Source: Shigella phage vB_SsoM_113 | Direction: 5' to 3' (one strand) | Sequence record: LR746311 | Length of the DNA stretch: 64,000 nt | Part shown: positions 2,929 to 10,270 of the stretch, piece after piece | How positions within the stretch are numbered: the stretch's first letter is position 1 | How the letters are laid out: the number at the start of each line of letters is the position of its first letter | The notes under the pieces: generated by a model | Told to the model about the DNA's origin: nothing | Databases searched by the model: none | What the model saw: the letters and a program-made list of their open reading frames with translations, nothing else | Translations under genes and position numbers: made by a program

Positions 2929-3324
2929 TTTATTGGAGATTCACTGCCTTAGTGTGAGCTAAAATCGAGGAGCCGTCGAACTGTCTGATTAATGATTTGC
3001 GAATCATTATAGTTTTAAGACCCCGGCAGTTTTACGGTGTACCTCTTGAATGTTATTCTTATAGCGGCAAGTGCATGCTACCCCGAGGTGATGGCCAATC
3101 GGGAGTACGCCTCAAGGCCTATATATCCATCAGTATATATCTTATCCTCGAGAAATCGAACCCGGAACCTTTAAGCTAACGGTGTGCAACAGATAAGAGT
3201 TATAAGTATGATGACGGGTTTATGGTTATCCTGTCGGTAAATACTCAAAACCTAAGTACCCCCTTGAGGGCTTTCGCAGGCAATGCCAATAAGTCCTGCA
3301 TTTTCATTTAAAAGAGAATTTATA

Positions 3325-3501
3325 ATGGCAAAACAAGCTAAAGCAAAGAAAGCAGTTGAAAAGAAAGTTGGTGATTCTAAACGCGCTGGTTACAAGCGTG
3401 GGTCGAACTCTCGTATCAATCAAACTGTTGAGAAGATCATGCGCCGAGCACGTGCGGTTCTTCGAGATGATGCTTCTCGTTTTGGTAAGCAGAAAGCATA
3501 A
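3325..3501 (+). CDS. small lysine-rich basic protein (58 aa)
   Basis: Track ORF 3283..3501; I prefer the internal ATG at 3325 (MAKQAKAKK...) with GAGA 7 nt upstream; followed by a strong terminator. Confidence 0.45.
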   Translation: MAKQAKAKKAVEKKVGDSKRAGYKRGSNSRINQTVEKIMRRARAVLRDDASRFGKQKA

Positions 3502-3506
3502 GTTGA

Positions 3507-3535
3507 GGACTCCTTCGGGAGTCCTTTTTTATTTT
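3507..3535 (+). terminator. rho-independent terminator
   Basis: GGACTCC-TTCG-GGAGTCC hairpin followed by TTTTTTATTTT. Confidence 0.6.
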
Positions 3536-3554
3536 CCAAAGACTGCACAAAGTT

Positions 3555-3584
3555 GTTTACAGTATGGTTCCTTTGTGATAGTAT
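3555..3584 (+). promoter_or_regulatory. T4 early-type promoter (GTTTAC -35, TAGTAT/TATTAT -10)
   Basis: aGTTGTTTAC, 17-18 nt spacer, gTGaTAGTATTAT, just upstream of the 3612 ORF. Confidence 0.45.
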
Positions 3585-3611
3585 TATCTTACACAAACAA
3601 AGGAGAATAAA

Positions 3612-3944
3612 ATGAAAACGATTAATCTGAACGCTGCAGTTAAAACTAAATGCTTCAATGGTAAATATGATGAAACTATGTGGTTCTTAATGGCAGTTGA
3701 AGGTGATATTATTGAAGTAGAAACAACAGAAGGTATGGGAACAGATTTCACCTTTACAATTCAAGTTCATAATTTCTTTACTGGTTGGATTTATGAATTG
3801 AATACAGTAATCGTTGGAAAAATTGAACAAAATGAATTGGGTGAATGGTATTATGTTACAGCTCGCCAACGTGCCGAACGCTTAATTGAGAAGATGAAAA
3901 AAGTTGGTAAACTTGACATGCAGCACTGGAAAGTAGTAAAATAA
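3612..3944 (+). CDS. hypothetical early protein (110 aa)
   Basis: ORF track; RBS AAAGGAGAAT upstream of the ATG. Confidence 0.6.
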   Translation: MKTINLNAAVKTKCFNGKYDETMWFLMAVEGDIIEVETTEGMGTDFTFTIQVHNFFTGWIYELNTVIVGKIEQNELGEWYYVTARQRAERLIEKMKKVGKLDMQHWKVVK

Positions 3945-3946
3945 TT

Positions 3947-3975
3947 GTTTACTTTGGTACAGGATATGATATTAT
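3947..3975 (+). promoter_or_regulatory. T4 early-type promoter
   Basis: GTTTAC, 17 nt spacer, TATTAT, upstream of the 4012 ORF. Confidence 0.5.
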
Positions 3976-4011
3976 ATACCTGTACCGCAATTAAACATCT
4001 TGGAGAATAAA

Positions 4012-4377
4012 ATGAACTACATCAACTTTGAACGTAAATATGTTTCTAACGGTATTGCAGGTTCTATTGATACTATCTGTCTTTGGAAACATCAAAATGG
4101 ATCAGTATGCGAAATTGAACAGTATATGACTCCTAACTACGTTTATATGCGATTTGAAAATGGCATCACGGTTTCAATCACAATGGAAGGTTCCAACTTC
4201 AAAATCGCTTTGGATGATGATTTTCGTCAACGCGATTTAGGGACTCATCCTTGCTGGAATGGTGTTAATCGCAAGCTTCTGGTTAAAACTTGGATTCGTC
4301 ATATTCTGAGTAACAGAGCTAAACCTGAGCATCTTGAAGCAATCTTTGATGTAGTTATTAACGAATTTGATATTTAA
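4012..4377 (+). CDS. hypothetical early protein (121 aa)
   Basis: The track ORF begins at a TTG (4000); the ATG at 4012 follows a GGAG RBS. Confidence 0.6.
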   Translation: MNYINFERKYVSNGIAGSIDTICLWKHQNGSVCEIEQYMTPNYVYMRFENGITVSITMEGSNFKIALDDDFRQRDLGTHPCWNGVNRKLLVKTWIRHILSNRAKPEHLEAIFDVVINEFDI

Positions 4378-4385
4378 AATAAAAT

Positions 4386-4405
4386 GAGGGGCTTCGGCCC
4401 CTTAC
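4386..4405 (+). terminator. GC stem-loop with TTCG tetraloop (weak terminator or RNA-stability element)
   Basis: GGGGC-TTCG-GCCCC; no strong T-tract after it. Confidence 0.3.
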
Positions 4406-4418
4406 TGAGGAAAATACT

Positions 4419-4706
4419 ATGTTTATGACTACTTATTTTGACACCCGCAAAAATTTCTGTGAAGTGGTTTTCTCTAAGGCGCCTAAAGACCTTCCTGCTC
4501 ATTTGCAACCTACCAGTGAATCAATTAAAAACTACGTTAATATAGTCTGCCCTTTGGAGTTCCGTATTGTAAATGGGTGCGATACTTTAGCTATCACTAA
4601 ACTCAATCGTGAAATTGACATTGACCCTTCAATTGCGCGTGAAATTAATATTTCTGATATTGGCGGCGGTAATGTTAAATCACATGGCTTTCAGATGAGA
4701 TTTTAA
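4419..4706 (+). CDS. hypothetical early protein (95 aa)
   Basis: ORF track. Confidence 0.55.
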   Translation: MFMTTYFDTRKNFCEVVFSKAPKDLPAHLQPTSESIKNYVNIVCPLEFRIVNGCDTLAITKLNREIDIDPSIAREINISDIGGGNVKSHGFQMRF

Positions 4707-4710
4707 TAAA

Positions 4711-4926
4711 ATGTTTAAGAAATTAATCCAGAAATTACTGGGCACGGAAATGGTTGAAGTTACTTATCGTGTGACTGATGTCTCTCCGCTCACTGAAGAC
4801 CATTTAGAGCCATATATTATGACAATTAAAATGCTTAAATATGATGGCGGATTATCTGTTGAAGACCGTTTACCAAGTTATGGTCATTGGGCTGATATTG
4901 AAATTATAAGTATTGAAAATGTCTGA
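4711..4926 (+). CDS. hypothetical early protein (71 aa)
   Basis: ORF track; ATG 5 nt after the previous stop. Confidence 0.5.
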   Translation: MFKKLIQKLLGTEMVEVTYRVTDVSPLTEDHLEPYIMTIKMLKYDGGLSVEDRLPSYGHWADIEIISIENV

Positions 4927-5377
4927 GCTAGAGATAAGAAGCAATTTTAAATGGCCATCATGCGCATTAAGTAATTTTGCCCAATGGCCTTTCGTTATGG
5001 ATGGTATTCAATTTGGAGGTCTAGAAGGATTCCTCCAAGGGTGTAAGGTGAAAAATGTTGAACAACAACGTCGTATATTTGGGTTATCCGGGCTTGCCGC
5101 CCAACAGGCTGGAAGGTCTTATGCTAGAGCTCAGGACCGTGGCACGTTGTTCTGGCTTGGAGTTCCGTTTTCAAGATACTCCCCGGCGTGGAAAGAATTA
5201 TACACAAATGCATATTTTGAAGCAGCGTTCCAAAACAAGGGCTTTCGCGATGCATTACAAGCCTCGAAAGGAAAAGTTTTGAAGCACAGCATGGCTAGTG
5301 GTCTAACAAAAGATGATACAATACTAACCGAAGCTGAATTTATTGATGTGTTAAACCTATTAAGAGACTCTCTATGA
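4919..5377 (+). CDS. NADAR/YbiA-like (DUF1768-type) protein, putative ADP-ribose processing enzyme
   Basis: Track ORF starts at a TTG (4913); ATG at 4919. Motif ALSNFAQWPFVMDGIQFGGLEGFLQGCK resembles the YbiA/NADAR signature (FSNFA.WP..DG...E.FQ.K). Assigned by motif only. Confidence 0.55.
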   Translation: MSELEIRSNFKWPSCALSNFAQWPFVMDGIQFGGLEGFLQGCKVKNVEQQRRIFGLSGLAAQQAGRSYARAQDRGTLFWLGVPFSRYSPAWKELYTNAYFEAAFQNKGFRDALQASKGKVLKHSMASGLTKDDTILTEAEFIDVLNLLRDSL

Positions 5378-6213
5378 AGCCTACTATTTTAACTGATATT
5401 GATGGAGTGTGTTTAAGCTGGCAATCAGGTCTTCCTTATTTTGCTCAGAAATATAATCTTCCGTTAGAACATATTTTAAAAATGATCCAAGATGAGAAAT
5501 TTATTTCTCCAGGTAAACTCTTTAATTGTGATGAAGAACTTGGTGTCAAGCTAATTGAAAAATACAATCGATCAGATTTTATTCGTTACTTGTCTCCATA
5601 TAAAGATGCCTTGTGCGTAATTAACAAACTAAAAGAAGATTATAATTTTGTAGCTGTTACAGCGCTGGGTGATTCTATTGACGCTCTGTTGAATCGTCAA
5701 TTTAATTTGAATGCTCTTTTTCCTGGTGCCTTCTCAGAAGTAATGATGTGTGGTCATGATTCTTCAAAAGAAGAGTTGTTCAAAAAGGCAAAAGAGAAAT
5801 ATAACGTAATTTGTTATATTGACGATCTTGCTCACCACTGCGACCACGCGAGTGAAATATTAAATGTTCCGGTTTATTGGATGGCTCGAGGAGAGCGTGA
5901 CAATATTCCAAAAACTGCGCAGCGAGTTTATACATGGAATGATGTAGAAAATAAGTTTTTTTCGCCGAAGGAAAATAAAGAAAGTTTTGATAGTGAAAAA
6001 GCTATAAAAGATTTAATTGAGAAGATGGTTAAAAACGATTCTTTTCCTTGGAACACTACCTGGAAAACGCCTGGATTTAATCCTTATAATCATCTATATC
6101 ATCCATATCAGACACATCCGTTTCAGACATGGAACTACATTAAACCTGGTGGCATAGAGTATTTGTATAATAGACCTACTAGCGGTGATAATATTTTCCA
6201 AGGAGCATTCTAA
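5374..6213 (+). CDS. HAD-superfamily hydrolase-like protein (279 aa)
   Basis: N-terminal ILTDIDGV motif (DxDG, HAD motif I) and a later ICYIDD motif; start overlaps the upstream stop. Confidence 0.6.
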   Translation: MKPTILTDIDGVCLSWQSGLPYFAQKYNLPLEHILKMIQDEKFISPGKLFNCDEELGVKLIEKYNRSDFIRYLSPYKDALCVINKLKEDYNFVAVTALGDSIDALLNRQFNLNALFPGAFSEVMMCGHDSSKEELFKKAKEKYNVICYIDDLAHHCDHASEILNVPVYWMARGERDNIPKTAQRVYTWNDVENKFFSPKENKESFDSEKAIKDLIEKMVKNDSFPWNTTWKTPGFNPYNHLYHPYQTHPFQTWNYIKPGGIEYLYNRPTSGDNIFQGAF

Positions 6214-6482
6214 TGTTTGTTGTTCACACTATTTATGAAAATGAAGGTAATACTACACGTGATTACGGTCACGTAAATCAATTTTTTAGATGTAATCCAG
6301 AATTCCGAGCTCAAAAAGACGAACGAATTTTTAAAAAATGTGTAGAGCAAGGTTTCATTTACGTTAAGCACTGGATGCAAGGAAATAAAGTTAGAACTAC
6401 ATATCATAGGTCTTTGCCTGAGCTTAATGATGAATTGATTTATAATAGAGCTGTAAACCAAACCTTGAAGGATGAGCAATGA
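6213..6482 (+). CDS. hypothetical early protein (89 aa)
   Basis: ORF track; overlaps the start of the ligase gene (ATGA). Confidence 0.5.
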   Translation: MFVVHTIYENEGNTTRDYGHVNQFFRCNPEFRAQKDERIFKKCVEQGFIYVKHWMQGNKVRTTYHRSLPELNDELIYNRAVNQTLKDEQ

Positions 6483-7939
6483 TTCTTAAAATTCTGAATG
6501 AAATAGCATCTATTGGATCAACTAAGCAGAAGCAAGCAATTCTTGAAAAGAATAAAGATAATGAATTGCTTAAACGAGTATATCGTCTGACTTATTCTCG
6601 TGGGTTACAGTATTATATCAAGAAATGGCCTAAACCTGGTATTGCTACCCAGAGTTTTGGAATGCTGACTATTACCGATATGCTTGACTTCATTGAATTC
6701 ACGTTAGCTACTCGGAAATTGACTGGAAATGCTGCAATTGAGGAATTAACTGGATATATCACTGATGGTAAAAAGGATGATGTTGAAGTTTTGCGTCGAG
6801 TGATGATGCGAGATCTTGAATGCGGTGCTTCAGTATCTATTGCAAATAAAGTTTGGCCAGGTTTAATTCCTGAACAACCTCAAATGTTGGCAAGTTCTTA
6901 TGATGAAAAAGGCATTAGTAAGAATATCAAATTTCCAGCCTTTGCACAGTTAAAAGCAGATGGAGCTCGGTGTTTTGCTGAAGTCCGAGGCGATGAATTA
7001 GATGATGTTCGTCTTTTATCACGAGCTGGTAATGAATATCTAGGATTAGATCTTCTTAAGGAAGAGTTAATCAAAATGACCGCTGAAGCTCGCCAGATTC
7101 ATCCAGAAGGCGTGTTAATTGATGGCGAATTGGTATACCATGAGCAAGTTGAAAAAGAGCCAGAAGGCCTAGATTTTCTTTTTGATGCTCCTGAAATCAG
7201 TAAAGCTAAAGAGTTTTCCGAAGTAGCTGAATCACGTACTGCTTCTAATGGAATTGCCAATAAATCTTTAAAGGGAACTATTTCAGAAAAAGAAGCTCAA
7301 TGTATGAAGTTTCAGGTCTGGGATTATGTCCCGTTAGTAGAAATATACGGTCTTCCAGCATTTCGTTTGAAGTATGATGTACGTTTTTCTAAACTAGAAC
7401 AAATGACATCAGGATATGATAAAGTAATTTTAATTGAAAACCAGATAGTAAATAACCTAGATGAAGCTAAGGTAATTTATAAAAAGTATATTGACCAAGG
7501 TCTTGAAGGTATTATTCTCAAAAATATCGATGGATTATGGGAAAATTCTCGTTCAAAAAATCTCTATAAATTTAAAGAAGTAATTGATGTTGATTTAAAA
7601 ATTGTAGGAATTTATCCTCACCGTAAAGACCCTACTAAAGCAGGTGGATTTATTCTTGAATCAGAGTGTGGAAAAATTAAAGTAAATGCTGGGTCAGGCT
7701 TAAAAGATAAAGCCGGTGTAAAATCGCATGAACTTGACCGTACTCGCATTATGGAAAACCAAAATTATTATATTGGAAAAATTCTAGAGTGCGAATGCAA
7801 TGGTTGGTTAAAATCTGATGGCCGCACTGATTACGTTAAATTATTTCTTCCGATTGCGATTCGTTTACGTGAAGATAAAACTAAAGCTAATACATTCGAG
7901 GATGTATTTGGTGATTTTCATGAGGTAACTGGTCTATGA
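6479..7939 (+). CDS. 30: ATP-dependent DNA ligase
   Basis: 486 aa; adenylation motif KADGARCF; N-terminus MILKILNEIASIGSTKQKQAILEKNKDNELLKRVY matches T4 DNA ligase as recalled. Confidence 0.97.
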   Translation: MILKILNEIASIGSTKQKQAILEKNKDNELLKRVYRLTYSRGLQYYIKKWPKPGIATQSFGMLTITDMLDFIEFTLATRKLTGNAAIEELTGYITDGKKDDVEVLRRVMMRDLECGASVSIANKVWPGLIPEQPQMLASSYDEKGISKNIKFPAFAQLKADGARCFAEVRGDELDDVRLLSRAGNEYLGLDLLKEELIKMTAEARQIHPEGVLIDGELVYHEQVEKEPEGLDFLFDAPEISKAKEFSEVAESRTASNGIANKSLKGTISEKEAQCMKFQVWDYVPLVEIYGLPAFRLKYDVRFSKLEQMTSGYDKVILIENQIVNNLDEAKVIYKKYIDQGLEGIILKNIDGLWENSRSKNLYKFKEVIDVDLKIVGIYPHRKDPTKAGGFILESECGKIKVNAGSGLKDKAGVKSHELDRTRIMENQNYYIGKILECECNGWLKSDGRTDYVKLFLPIAIRLREDKTKANTFEDVFGDFHEVTGL

Positions 7940-8124
7940 AAGCTTACTTAGAAACAATTGTCGTGGCTCAAAAAGAAGGTGGAGATGTTTCTACTTCTGT
8001 ATCACAAATTATGATTGAATTTATAGATGCATATGCTTATAATAAATTCACAGAAACATTTGATACCTATGAAAAAGGTCCAAAGTTTGAAATATATCGT
8101 ACTCTCTTACCAATAGATTATTAA
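7936..8124 (+). CDS. hypothetical protein (62 aa)
   Basis: ORF track; start overlaps the ligase stop; followed by a hairpin terminator. Confidence 0.45.
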   Translation: MKAYLETIVVAQKEGGDVSTSVSQIMIEFIDAYAYNKFTETFDTYEKGPKFEIYRTLLPIDY

Positions 8125-8147
8125 AGGCCTTCGGGCCTTTAATTTTA
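8123..8147 (+). terminator. stem-loop terminator
   Basis: AAAGGCC-TTCG-GGCCTTT followed by AATTTTA. Confidence 0.5.
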
Positions 8148-8176
8148 TAAATAGAATAAACACTAGAGAGGATATG

Positions 8177-10270
8177 ATGGAACTCATTACAGAATTATTT
8201 GACGAAGATACTACTCTTCCGATTACAAACTTAAATCCAAAGAAGAAAATACCGCAAATTTTTTCAGTTCATGTTGATGACGCAATTGAACAACCAGGTT
8301 TTCGTTTATGTACCTATACATCTGGAGGTGATACTAATCGCGATTTAAAAATGGGCGATAAAATGATGCATATTGTTCCTTTTACATTAACTGCTAAAGG
8401 TTCAATTGCTAAATTAAAAGGTCTCGGTCCAAGCCCAATTAATTACATCAATTCAGTTTTTACTGTTGCGATGCAGACGATGCGTCAGTATAAAATTGAT
8501 GCATGTATGCTCCGTATTCTTAAGTCTAAAACTGCTGGTCAAGCTCGTCAAATTCAACTTATTGCTGATAGACTTATCCGTAGTCGTTCAGGTGGCAGAT
8601 ACGTCCTTCTTAAGGAACTCTGGGATTATGATAAAAAGTATGCATATATTCTTATACATCGCAAAAATGTATCATTAGAAGACATTCCAGGAGTTCCAGA
8701 AATTAGTACCGAGCTCTTTACTAAAGTTGAATCGAAGGTCGGTGATGTTTATATCAATAAAGATACTGGAGCTCAAGTAACTAAAAATGAGGCAATTGCT
8801 GCATCTATTGCGCAAGAAAATGATAAACGTTCTGACCAAGCGGTAATCGTTAAAGTTAAAATTTCCCGTAGAGCAATTGCACAAAGTCAGTCATTGGAAT
8901 CTTCTAGATTTGAAAGTGAATTATTCCAGAAGTATGAATCTACCGCAGCTAATTTCAATAAACCTGCTACAGCTCCTTTAATTCCCGAAGCAGAAGAAAT
9001 GAAGCTTGGAATTAATTCATTAGCTTCTAAAACTAAGGCAGCAAAAATTATTGCTGAAGGAACTGCAGATGAACTTCATTATGACTATAAATTCTTTTCA
9101 AAAAGTGAGGTTAATGAAGTTTCTGAAAAAATTAAAGATGTAATTCTTAATGCGATTAAAAATGAACCAACTACTTCAATAAAATGTTTAGAGAAATACG
9201 CAGCAGCTGTTAATCAATTATTTGAAGAATATAAAGATAACTGGCTTGATAAACATAATAAAACTCGTAAAGGACAAACAGATGAAGTCTGGGAAGAAAT
9301 AACTAAAAATTCCTGGAACGCAGCAAAAACTAAATTCCTCAAACGAATGATTTATAGCTTTTCCGGAATTGGTGCAGGTCCAATGATTGATATTACTATT
9401 GCCCGTGATGGTTCTAAATATACTCCATCACAAAAGCGCGGCATTAGAGAGTATTGTGGTTCAGGATATACTGACATCAATAATCTTCTTTTGGGTCGTT
9501 ACAATCCAGAACGATATGATGTAATGAGTGAAAAAGAAATTGAATCTGCTATAAATAACTTAGATTCAGCTTTTGAAAACGGTGACCGTATACCAGAAGG
9601 CATTACAGTTTATCGTGCTCAAAGCATGACTGCTCCTATATACGAAGCATTAGTTAAAAATAAAGTATTCTATTTCAGAAATTTTGTATCTACTTCTTTA
9701 ACTCCTATCATTTTTGGACGTTTTGGAATTACACATGCTGGTATTGGTCTTTTAGAACCAGAAGCTCGTAATGAATTGACAGTTGATAAAAATGAAGAAG
9801 GAATAACTATTAATCCAAACGAAATAAGAGCATATAAAGAAAATCCTGAATACGTTAAAGTTCAAATAGGATGGGCAATTGATGGAGCTCATAAAGTTAA
9901 TGTTGTATATCCAGGAAGTCTCGGAATAGCAACAGAAGCTGAAGTTATTCTACCACGCGGATTGATGGTCAAAGTTAATAAAATAACTGATGCTTCTAAT
10001 AATGACGGAACAACATCTAATAATACAAAACTCATTCAAGCTGAAGTTATGACTACGGAAGAACTCACCGAATCAGTAATTTATGACGGTGATCGTCTAA
10101 TGGAAACTGGTGAAGTAGTTGCAATGACAGGTGATATTGAAATAGAAGACAGAGTTGATTTTGCATCATTTGTTTCATCAAATGTTAAACAAAAAGTAGA
10201 ATCATCTCTTGGAATTATTGCGTCTTGCATAGATATTGCAAACATGCCTTACAAGTTCGTTCAAGGATAA
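8177..10270 (+). CDS. alt: Alt-type ADP-ribosyltransferase (head-packaged, injected)
   Basis: About 697 aa; N-terminus MELITELFD; C-terminal ART-like motifs (TVYRAQ, FVSTSL, EAEVILPRG). The track starts one ATG earlier (8174). Confidence 0.9.
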   Translation: MELITELFDEDTTLPITNLNPKKKIPQIFSVHVDDAIEQPGFRLCTYTSGGDTNRDLKMGDKMMHIVPFTLTAKGSIAKLKGLGPSPINYINSVFTVAMQTMRQYKIDACMLRILKSKTAGQARQIQLIADRLIRSRSGGRYVLLKELWDYDKKYAYILIHRKNVSLEDIPGVPEISTELFTKVESKVGDVYINKDTGAQVTKNEAIAASIAQENDKRSDQAVIVKVKISRRAIAQSQSLESSRFESELFQKYESTAANFNKPATAPLIPEAEEMKLGINSLASKTKAAKIIAEGTADELHYDYKFFSKSEVNEVSEKIKDVILNAIKNEPTTSIKCLEKYAAAVNQLFEEYKDNWLDKHNKTRKGQTDEVWEEITKNSWNAAKTKFLKRMIYSFSGIGAGPMIDITIARDGSKYTPSQKRGIREYCGSGYTDINNLLLGRYNPERYDVMSEKEIESAINNLDSAFENGDRIPEGITVYRAQSMTAPIYEALVKNKVFYFRNFVSTSLTPIIFGRFGITHAGIGLLEPEARNELTVDKNEEGITINPNEIRAYKENPEYVKVQIGWAIDGAHKVNVVYPGSLGIATEAEVILPRGLMVKVNKITDASNNDGTTSNNTKLIQAEVMTTEELTESVIYDGDRLMETGEVVAMTGDIEIEDRVDFASFVSSNVKQKVESSLGIIASCIDIANMPYKFVQG

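Follow-up and report, generated by a model that had tools for sequence, protein, structure and literature searches.

The open reading frame (ORF) at 4919-5377 of the window (the whole 64,000-nucleotide stretch of DNA that was analysed) is, with high confidence, an intact orthologue of adfN (gene 30.3) of phage T4, encoding an early-expressed, single-domain enzyme of the NADAR fold. With a product 98% identical to the T4 protein and its C-terminal helix retained, the gene is an intact orthologue of a counter-defence enzyme that has been characterised by experiment. The feature has been described before, as T4 AdfN: work published in 2023-2025 covers its family and fold, its catalytic residues, and its activity and phenotype, and the window adds one more intact allele, with no novelty beyond that.

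4919..5377, + strand: adfN (T4 gene 30.3 orthologue), predicted phage-type NADAR DNA ADP-ribosylglycohydrolase, 152 amino acids, full length

The gene runs on the + strand from an ATG at 4919 to a TGA at 5375-5377, and the peptide ALSNFAQWPFVMDGIQFGGLEGFLQGCK, which the earlier note had quoted from a 152-amino acid ORF in this position, was confirmed as residues 16-43 of the product. The longest mechanical ORF starts at a TTG at 4913, 6 nt upstream of the ATG, and would give 154 amino acids; the ATG at 4919 was preferred because it corresponds to the start annotated for gene 30.3 in T4. The ORF is a real gene and did not arise by chance, as it matches the Pfam family PF08010 (Phage_30_3) with E=1.3e-69 (232.8 bits against a cutoff of 36, spanning profile positions 1-138 of 138), has many homologues, and has 12 synonymous changes among its 17 nucleotide differences from T4. 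A word-indexed search gave 107 homologues of the product at E<=1e-3, and an exhaustive profile search gave 1,675 cluster representatives at 50% identity for the gp30.3-type family (the best 150 of these 1,675 matches were all clearly gp30.3-type).

Within adfN, in another frame, lies the counterpart of the annotated T4 ORF 30.3' (75 amino acids in T4; here 5055-5282, + strand). Of the nine nucleotide differences from T4 in this span, 8 change an amino acid when read in the 30.3' frame and only 2 do so in the adfN frame, so that amino-acid identity to T4 across it is 91% in the 30.3' frame compared to about 99% in the adfN frame. It is therefore on adfN that selection acts, and 30.3' is probably not under constraint as a coding sequence.

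The 152-amino acid product aligns with T4 gp30.3 (NP_049816) at equal length and without gaps, with 149 of 152 residues identical. Over the 459 nt of the gene, the five differences from T4 that are not synonymous lie in three codons and give the substitutions R11K, I104F and I125M, the Met at 125 being the consensus residue of the family; none of these positions lies in an invariant or nearly invariant column of the 65-homologue alignment described below. The 2-kb region around adfN has 95-97% nucleotide identity with hundreds of Tequatrovirus genomes, as the first 25 kb of the window likewise has with many of them, and the source is, by these sequence comparisons, a T4-like phage (Tequatrovirus). 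The T4 gene order 30.4-30.3-30.2-30.1-30-alt.1-alt is kept, appearing in the window as a 71-amino acid ORF, the 152-amino acid ORF, a 279-amino acid ORF, an 89-amino acid DUF3045 protein, a 486-amino acid ATP-dependent DNA ligase, a 62-amino acid ORF and Alt.

The start codon of adfN overlaps the stop of the upstream 71-amino acid ORF (30.4/30.3, ATGTCTGA), and further start/stop overlaps in 4919-6482 are found at 30.3/30.2 (ATGA), where the gp30.2 start overlaps the adfN stop, at 30.2/30.1 (TAATG) and at 30.1/30 (ATGA). Such overlaps point to adfN being translationally coupled with the genes around it, as far as that for DNA ligase, and the ATGA at the adfN stop predicts that gp30.2 is coupled to adfN in this way; tight gene packing of the kind seen around adfN is typical of T4 early gene blocks. 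A promoter and terminator scan of 3000-8300 gave counts no higher than in shuffled sequence, and therefore no conclusion is drawn on a dedicated promoter. The same scan, with its counts at the shuffled level, returned a strong terminator-like hairpin (3505-3526, + strand, a 9-bp stem followed by a T-run, after a 72-amino acid ORF) and a sigma-70-like promoter matching at 11 of 12 positions (TTGACA-18-TAAAAT, 3913-3942, + strand) upstream of a 30.7-like ORF.

The product had earlier been described as NADAR/YbiA-like, with a profile search against PF08719 as one way of checking this. That description held, by remote comparison and not by the direct one: no direct match of the product to the Pfam NADAR family PF08719 was found even at E<=10. 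It was also without a match in NCBIfam or to the DarG models of PADLOC, and a single-sequence phmmer search against the PDB gave just one spurious match (E=0.8); a match to phrog_652 was obtained with E=1.5e-51. When an alignment of 65 full-length homologues (35-87% identity) was used as a profile, the top match in the PDB by hmmsearch was E. coli YbiA (E=0.004), and hhalign aligned this profile with YbiA over window protein residues 15-122 with 94% probability (E=1.4e-7), pairing E36 with YbiA E48 and K43 with YbiA K55. PF08719 was also matched by 25 of the 65 homologues when these were taken one by one, with a best E of 1.5e-7. Sequence identity to solved NADARs is 14-20%, and the AlphaFold2 model made from the alignment is a confident one (pLDDT 93.3, pTM 0.89), the product having the YbiA fold of a helical core with two small flanking sheets. 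In Pfam the gp30.3 family is PF08010, separate from PF08719, and the missing PF08719 match is a result of this division of families and not counter-evidence on homology. There is a lesson for annotation here, in that a plain PF08719 test gives a false negative and would wrongly refute a correct NADAR call, while the gene still goes by "hypothetical" or "Phage_30_3" in Pfam, in NCBIfam and in most GenBank records.

The residues and the secondary structure element on which the assignment to an active enzyme bears are as follows.

5024..5026, + strand: Glu36 (codon GAA), predicted catalytic glutamate of the (S/L)EGFLQ..K motif, aligned with YbiA E48, invariant in 65 homologues

5045..5047, + strand: Lys43 (codon AAG), predicted ADP-ribose phosphate-contacting lysine, aligned with YbiA K55, invariant in 65 homologues

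5285..5287, + strand: His123 (codon CAC), hallmark of the phage NADARs, in the final beta-strand (model strand E120-123), invariant in 65 homologues

5330..5371, + strand: C-terminal alpha-helix, residues 138-151, a helix in the model, with ungapped T4 identity through residue 152

The Glu and Lys of the NADAR SxE..xQxxK motif are therefore both present, as E36 and K43, which the check on catalytic residues had called for. In T4 AdfN, the E36A substitution impairs function in vivo and in vitro and K43A also impairs it (PMC11825919), and the equivalent of K43 in the NADAR of E. coli C7, K95, is essential (PMC11543638). The gp30.3 proteins have a His in the last strand in place of the YbiA-type Glu or the DarG1-type Asp (PMC11125620; PMC11543638). 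This bears on whether the product could be a housekeeping, YbiA-type N-glycosidase acting on riboflavin-pathway intermediates, a role that the fold and N-terminal motif common to it and E. coli YbiA would permit, but which is extremely unlikely: His123 occupies the last strand and the Glu of the YbiA subfamily is lacking, gp30.3 clusters nearest to the DarG1-type NADARs and not to YbiA (PMC11825919), riboflavin damage control is of no obvious use to a lytic phage, and the DarTG1 phenotype is direct (PMC11825919).

The C-terminal helix is modelled with pLDDT >90. In RB69, the insertion of 1 nt removes the final 15 residues and makes the phage sensitive to DarTG1, and a T4 truncation mutant has also been described (PMC11825919); the RB69 allele is thus frameshifted and non-functional with its C-terminal helix lost, whereas the window allele retains this helix. 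Several other T4-like phage records contain shortened or frame-fused forms of gp30.3 with 80-97% identity (109 amino acids in phage SV76, P0007; 107 in vB_Eco_NR1, P0016; 91 in UGJNEcP4, P0017; and 126 in P0004-P0006). These short products may be natural loss-of-function alleles like that of RB69, or sequencing or annotation errors, and if they are true losses of function they would predict DarTG1 sensitivity. The existence of such fragments raises the question of whether the window allele too is a non-functional remnant like that of RB69, but this is very improbable, given a full-length ORF without insertions or deletions against T4, a C-terminal helix that is present, catalytic residues that are intact and substitutions that are mostly synonymous.

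NADARs hydrolyse guanine-N2-ADP-ribose and act as the antitoxin to DarT1 (Schuller et al. 2023, PMC11543638), and T4 gp30.3 was found to remove guanosine-ADPr but not thymidine-ADPr in vitro (2024, PMC11125620; PMC12945103). The DarTG1 resistance of T-even phages was mapped to gene 30.3 via recombination with the sensitive phage RB69, and the gene was renamed adfN (Johannesman et al. 2025, PMC11825919). Deletion of adfN made both T4 and T2 sensitive to DarTG1, ectopic adfN expression rescued RB69, and purified T4 AdfN, but not its E36A variant, de-ADP-ribosylated DarT1-modified DNA; T4 AdfN did not bind DarT1 and did not counter DarTG2 (PMC11825919). The suggestion of the earlier note that the gene could be anti-defensive is thus borne out by published work on a protein 98% identical to that of the window. 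T4 AdfN did not rescue uninfected cells from DarT1 toxicity and rescued non-T-even phages only weakly (PMC11825919), and therefore a further T-even factor is needed.

In the mechanism proposed, the host DarT1 toxin would ADP-ribosylate guanine (at N2) in phage DNA and block replication, and AdfN, made early, would hydrolyse the N-glycosidic bond between the base and the ADP-ribose, giving unmodified DNA on which phage replication could resume. Glu36 and Lys43 would keep the diphosphate and the distal ribose in place, the catalytic Glu or Asp of cellular NADARs would be replaced by His123 of the last beta-strand, and the target would be the lesion itself and not the toxin, to which AdfN would not bind. 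By analogy with the 98%-identical T4 protein, we infer that the window allele, with its R11K, I104F and I125M substitutions, would have guanine-ADP-ribose glycohydrolase activity and would behave like T4 AdfN; because it is intact, unlike that of RB69, the phage is predicted to resist DarTG1.

It is conceivable, though on balance unlikely, that the substrate of AdfN is broader than, or other than, DarT1-modified DNA, and includes guanine-ADPr on RNA or the marks of other ADP-ribosylating defence toxins, anti-DarTG1 activity being just one role. Enzymes representing each of the NADAR families, that of phage T4 among them, act in vitro on G-ADPr in RNA and DNA alike, removing it from both (PMC12945103), other targets were raised as a possibility in the AdfN paper (PMC11825919), and the gp30.3-type family is very large (with the 1,675 representatives at 50% identity given above) and its genes also occur in unrelated large phage contigs. 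Against this, the sole in vivo phenotype reported is specific to DarTG1 (PMC11825919), and where cytidine-ADPr reversal is tabulated it is assigned just to the NADAR and YbiA types, with the phage NADAR left out (PMC12945103). Removal of ADP-ribose from DarT1-modified DNA is the role that we prefer for AdfN.

Two of the gp30.3-type genes outside T4-like phages lie on the very large phage-like contigs L002 (a 308-kb ENA contig) and L005, at 6001-6468 in each case; that of L002 is ~2.6 kb from a NUDIX hydrolase gene and a Thg1-like gene, and that of L005, which matches both PF08010 and PF08719, is near GGDEF and SprT-like genes. Metagenomic gp30.3-type NADARs were seen fused to BspA-type leucine-rich repeats (LRR_5), to prolipoprotein diacylglyceryl transferase (Lgt) and to a GDSL lipase, and two gp30.3-type copies in one protein also occur (metagenomic set P0278, P0340, P0264, P0253, P0208). 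The AdfN and NADAR literature cited here does not mention fused or duplicated gp30.3-type architectures, and some of the metagenomic fusions could be gene-calling artefacts.

Two ADP-ribosyltransferase genes of Alt type are found downstream of adfN, with PF03496 matches of E=1.5e-37 and 3.1e-20.

8174-10270, + strand: Alt-type gene 1, full length, PF03496

10274-12331, + strand: Alt-type gene 2, full length, PF03496

Their starts are about 2.8 and 4.9 kb from adfN, in agreement with the distance of about 3 kb originally given for the pair. It had been suggested on this account that AdfN might tune ADP-ribosylation made by the phage itself, but no evidence for this was found, and we consider it highly improbable that AdfN tunes or reverses the action of Alt, ModA or ModB on host proteins or RNA. 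The proximity is a loose one, the two genes lying 2.8-5 kb downstream in the same early direction of transcription, with four genes, including that for DNA ligase, between adfN and alt. Alt-type enzymes modify protein arginine (the T4 annotation is RNA polymerase ADP-ribosyltransferase) whereas NADARs cleave base-linked, N-glycosidic ADP-ribose; furthermore, the neighbours of distant gp30.3-type genes are without a Pfam match to ADP-ribosyltransferases, and DarT1 reversal fully explains the published phenotypes (PMC11825919). Alt-type gene 1 is itself a mosaic relative to T4 Alt (70% identical overall), in which residues ~1-250 and the C-terminal ~100 are near-identical to T4 and the central part, with the ART domain, is divergent. 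Alt-type gene 2 is 41% identical to T4 Alt and sits at the place of T4 alt.-1/alt.-2, annotated in the T4 record as what is left of an old duplication of alt.

The ORF that follows adfN had been called HAD-like, and this is well supported.

5374..6213, + strand: gene 30.2 orthologue, 279-amino acid HAD-fold hydrolase, with a nucleotidase-like core (residues 1-195) and a disordered aromatic/Pro-rich tail

The product is 96% identical to T4 gp30.2 and has no Pfam or NCBIfam match. The HAD residues D8, D10, K132, D150 and D151 are invariant and T96 is nearly so, and a gp30.2 profile aligned weakly (E=0.059), over the DxDG motif, with the 5'(3')-deoxyribonucleotidase 2jao. In the AlphaFold2 model the core has pLDDT >90 and the tail is disordered; Foldseek gave 123 PDB matches at E<=1e-3, the top 50 of these 123 being mostly HAD-family or HAD-derived and the best being 5'(3')-deoxyribonucleotidases (E~3e-8). 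The tail (residues ~200-279, window ~5970-6210) is of low confidence and contains many aromatic, Pro and His residues (…FPWNTTWKTPGFNPYNHLYHPYQTHPFQTWNY…), and many gp30.2 homologues are ~200-220 amino acids long and without it.

No literature on the function of gp30.2 was found. That it is the T-even factor needed by T4 AdfN for full activity, an idea suggested by adjacency, is very unlikely; in that role it might localise or stabilise AdfN, or process the released ADP-ribose or a phosphoribosyl remnant. The gp30.2 profile found nothing in six gp30.3-type loci from two unrelated contig families, large and phage-like with lengths reaching 308 kb, and with gp30.2 absent beside such distant gp30.3-type genes the gp30.2/gp30.3 pairing is therefore specific to T4-like phages, which weakens the case for gp30.2 as an obligate partner of AdfN.

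Among known systems, T4 AdfN is the closest, with the slot between 30.4 and 30.2, the start/stop overlaps, E36, K43 and H123, and the C-terminal helix all common to both, and the three substitutions of the window allele, all conservative, as the difference. E. coli YbiA (PF08719, 2b3w) and the Phytophthora NADAR (8bau) are solved structures at 14-20% identity to the window protein; YbiA has its subfamily-defining Glu and a metabolic role whereas the window AdfN has a His and a counter-defence role. The DarG1 NADARs of Geobacter lovleyi (8bat) and E. coli C7 adjoin a DarT toxin, have an N-terminal extension (219 amino acids) and carry an Asp in the last strand, whereas the window AdfN is an orphan of 152 amino acids without this extension and with a His in that strand. 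Its flanking ORFs, gp30.4, gp30.2, gp30.1 and the ligase, gave no ADP-ribosyltransferase Pfam match as would befit a DarT1 neighbour, and PADLOC had no match for the adfN ORF or its three closest neighbours. DarG1 also functions as an antitoxin, which T4 AdfN is unable to do in uninfected cells (PMC11825919). AdfN-Bas32 and AdfN-Bas60, of T5-like and Vequintavirinae phages, are phage NADARs that counter DarTG1 as AdfN does, but they fall in different NADAR clades and represent independent acquisitions; they need no T-even factors, and neutralise DarT1 even in cells that are not infected (PMC11825919). Alongside these, the window gene provides an example of a lytic phage with an orphan, antitoxin-like enzyme that would erase the DNA modification made by a defence system.
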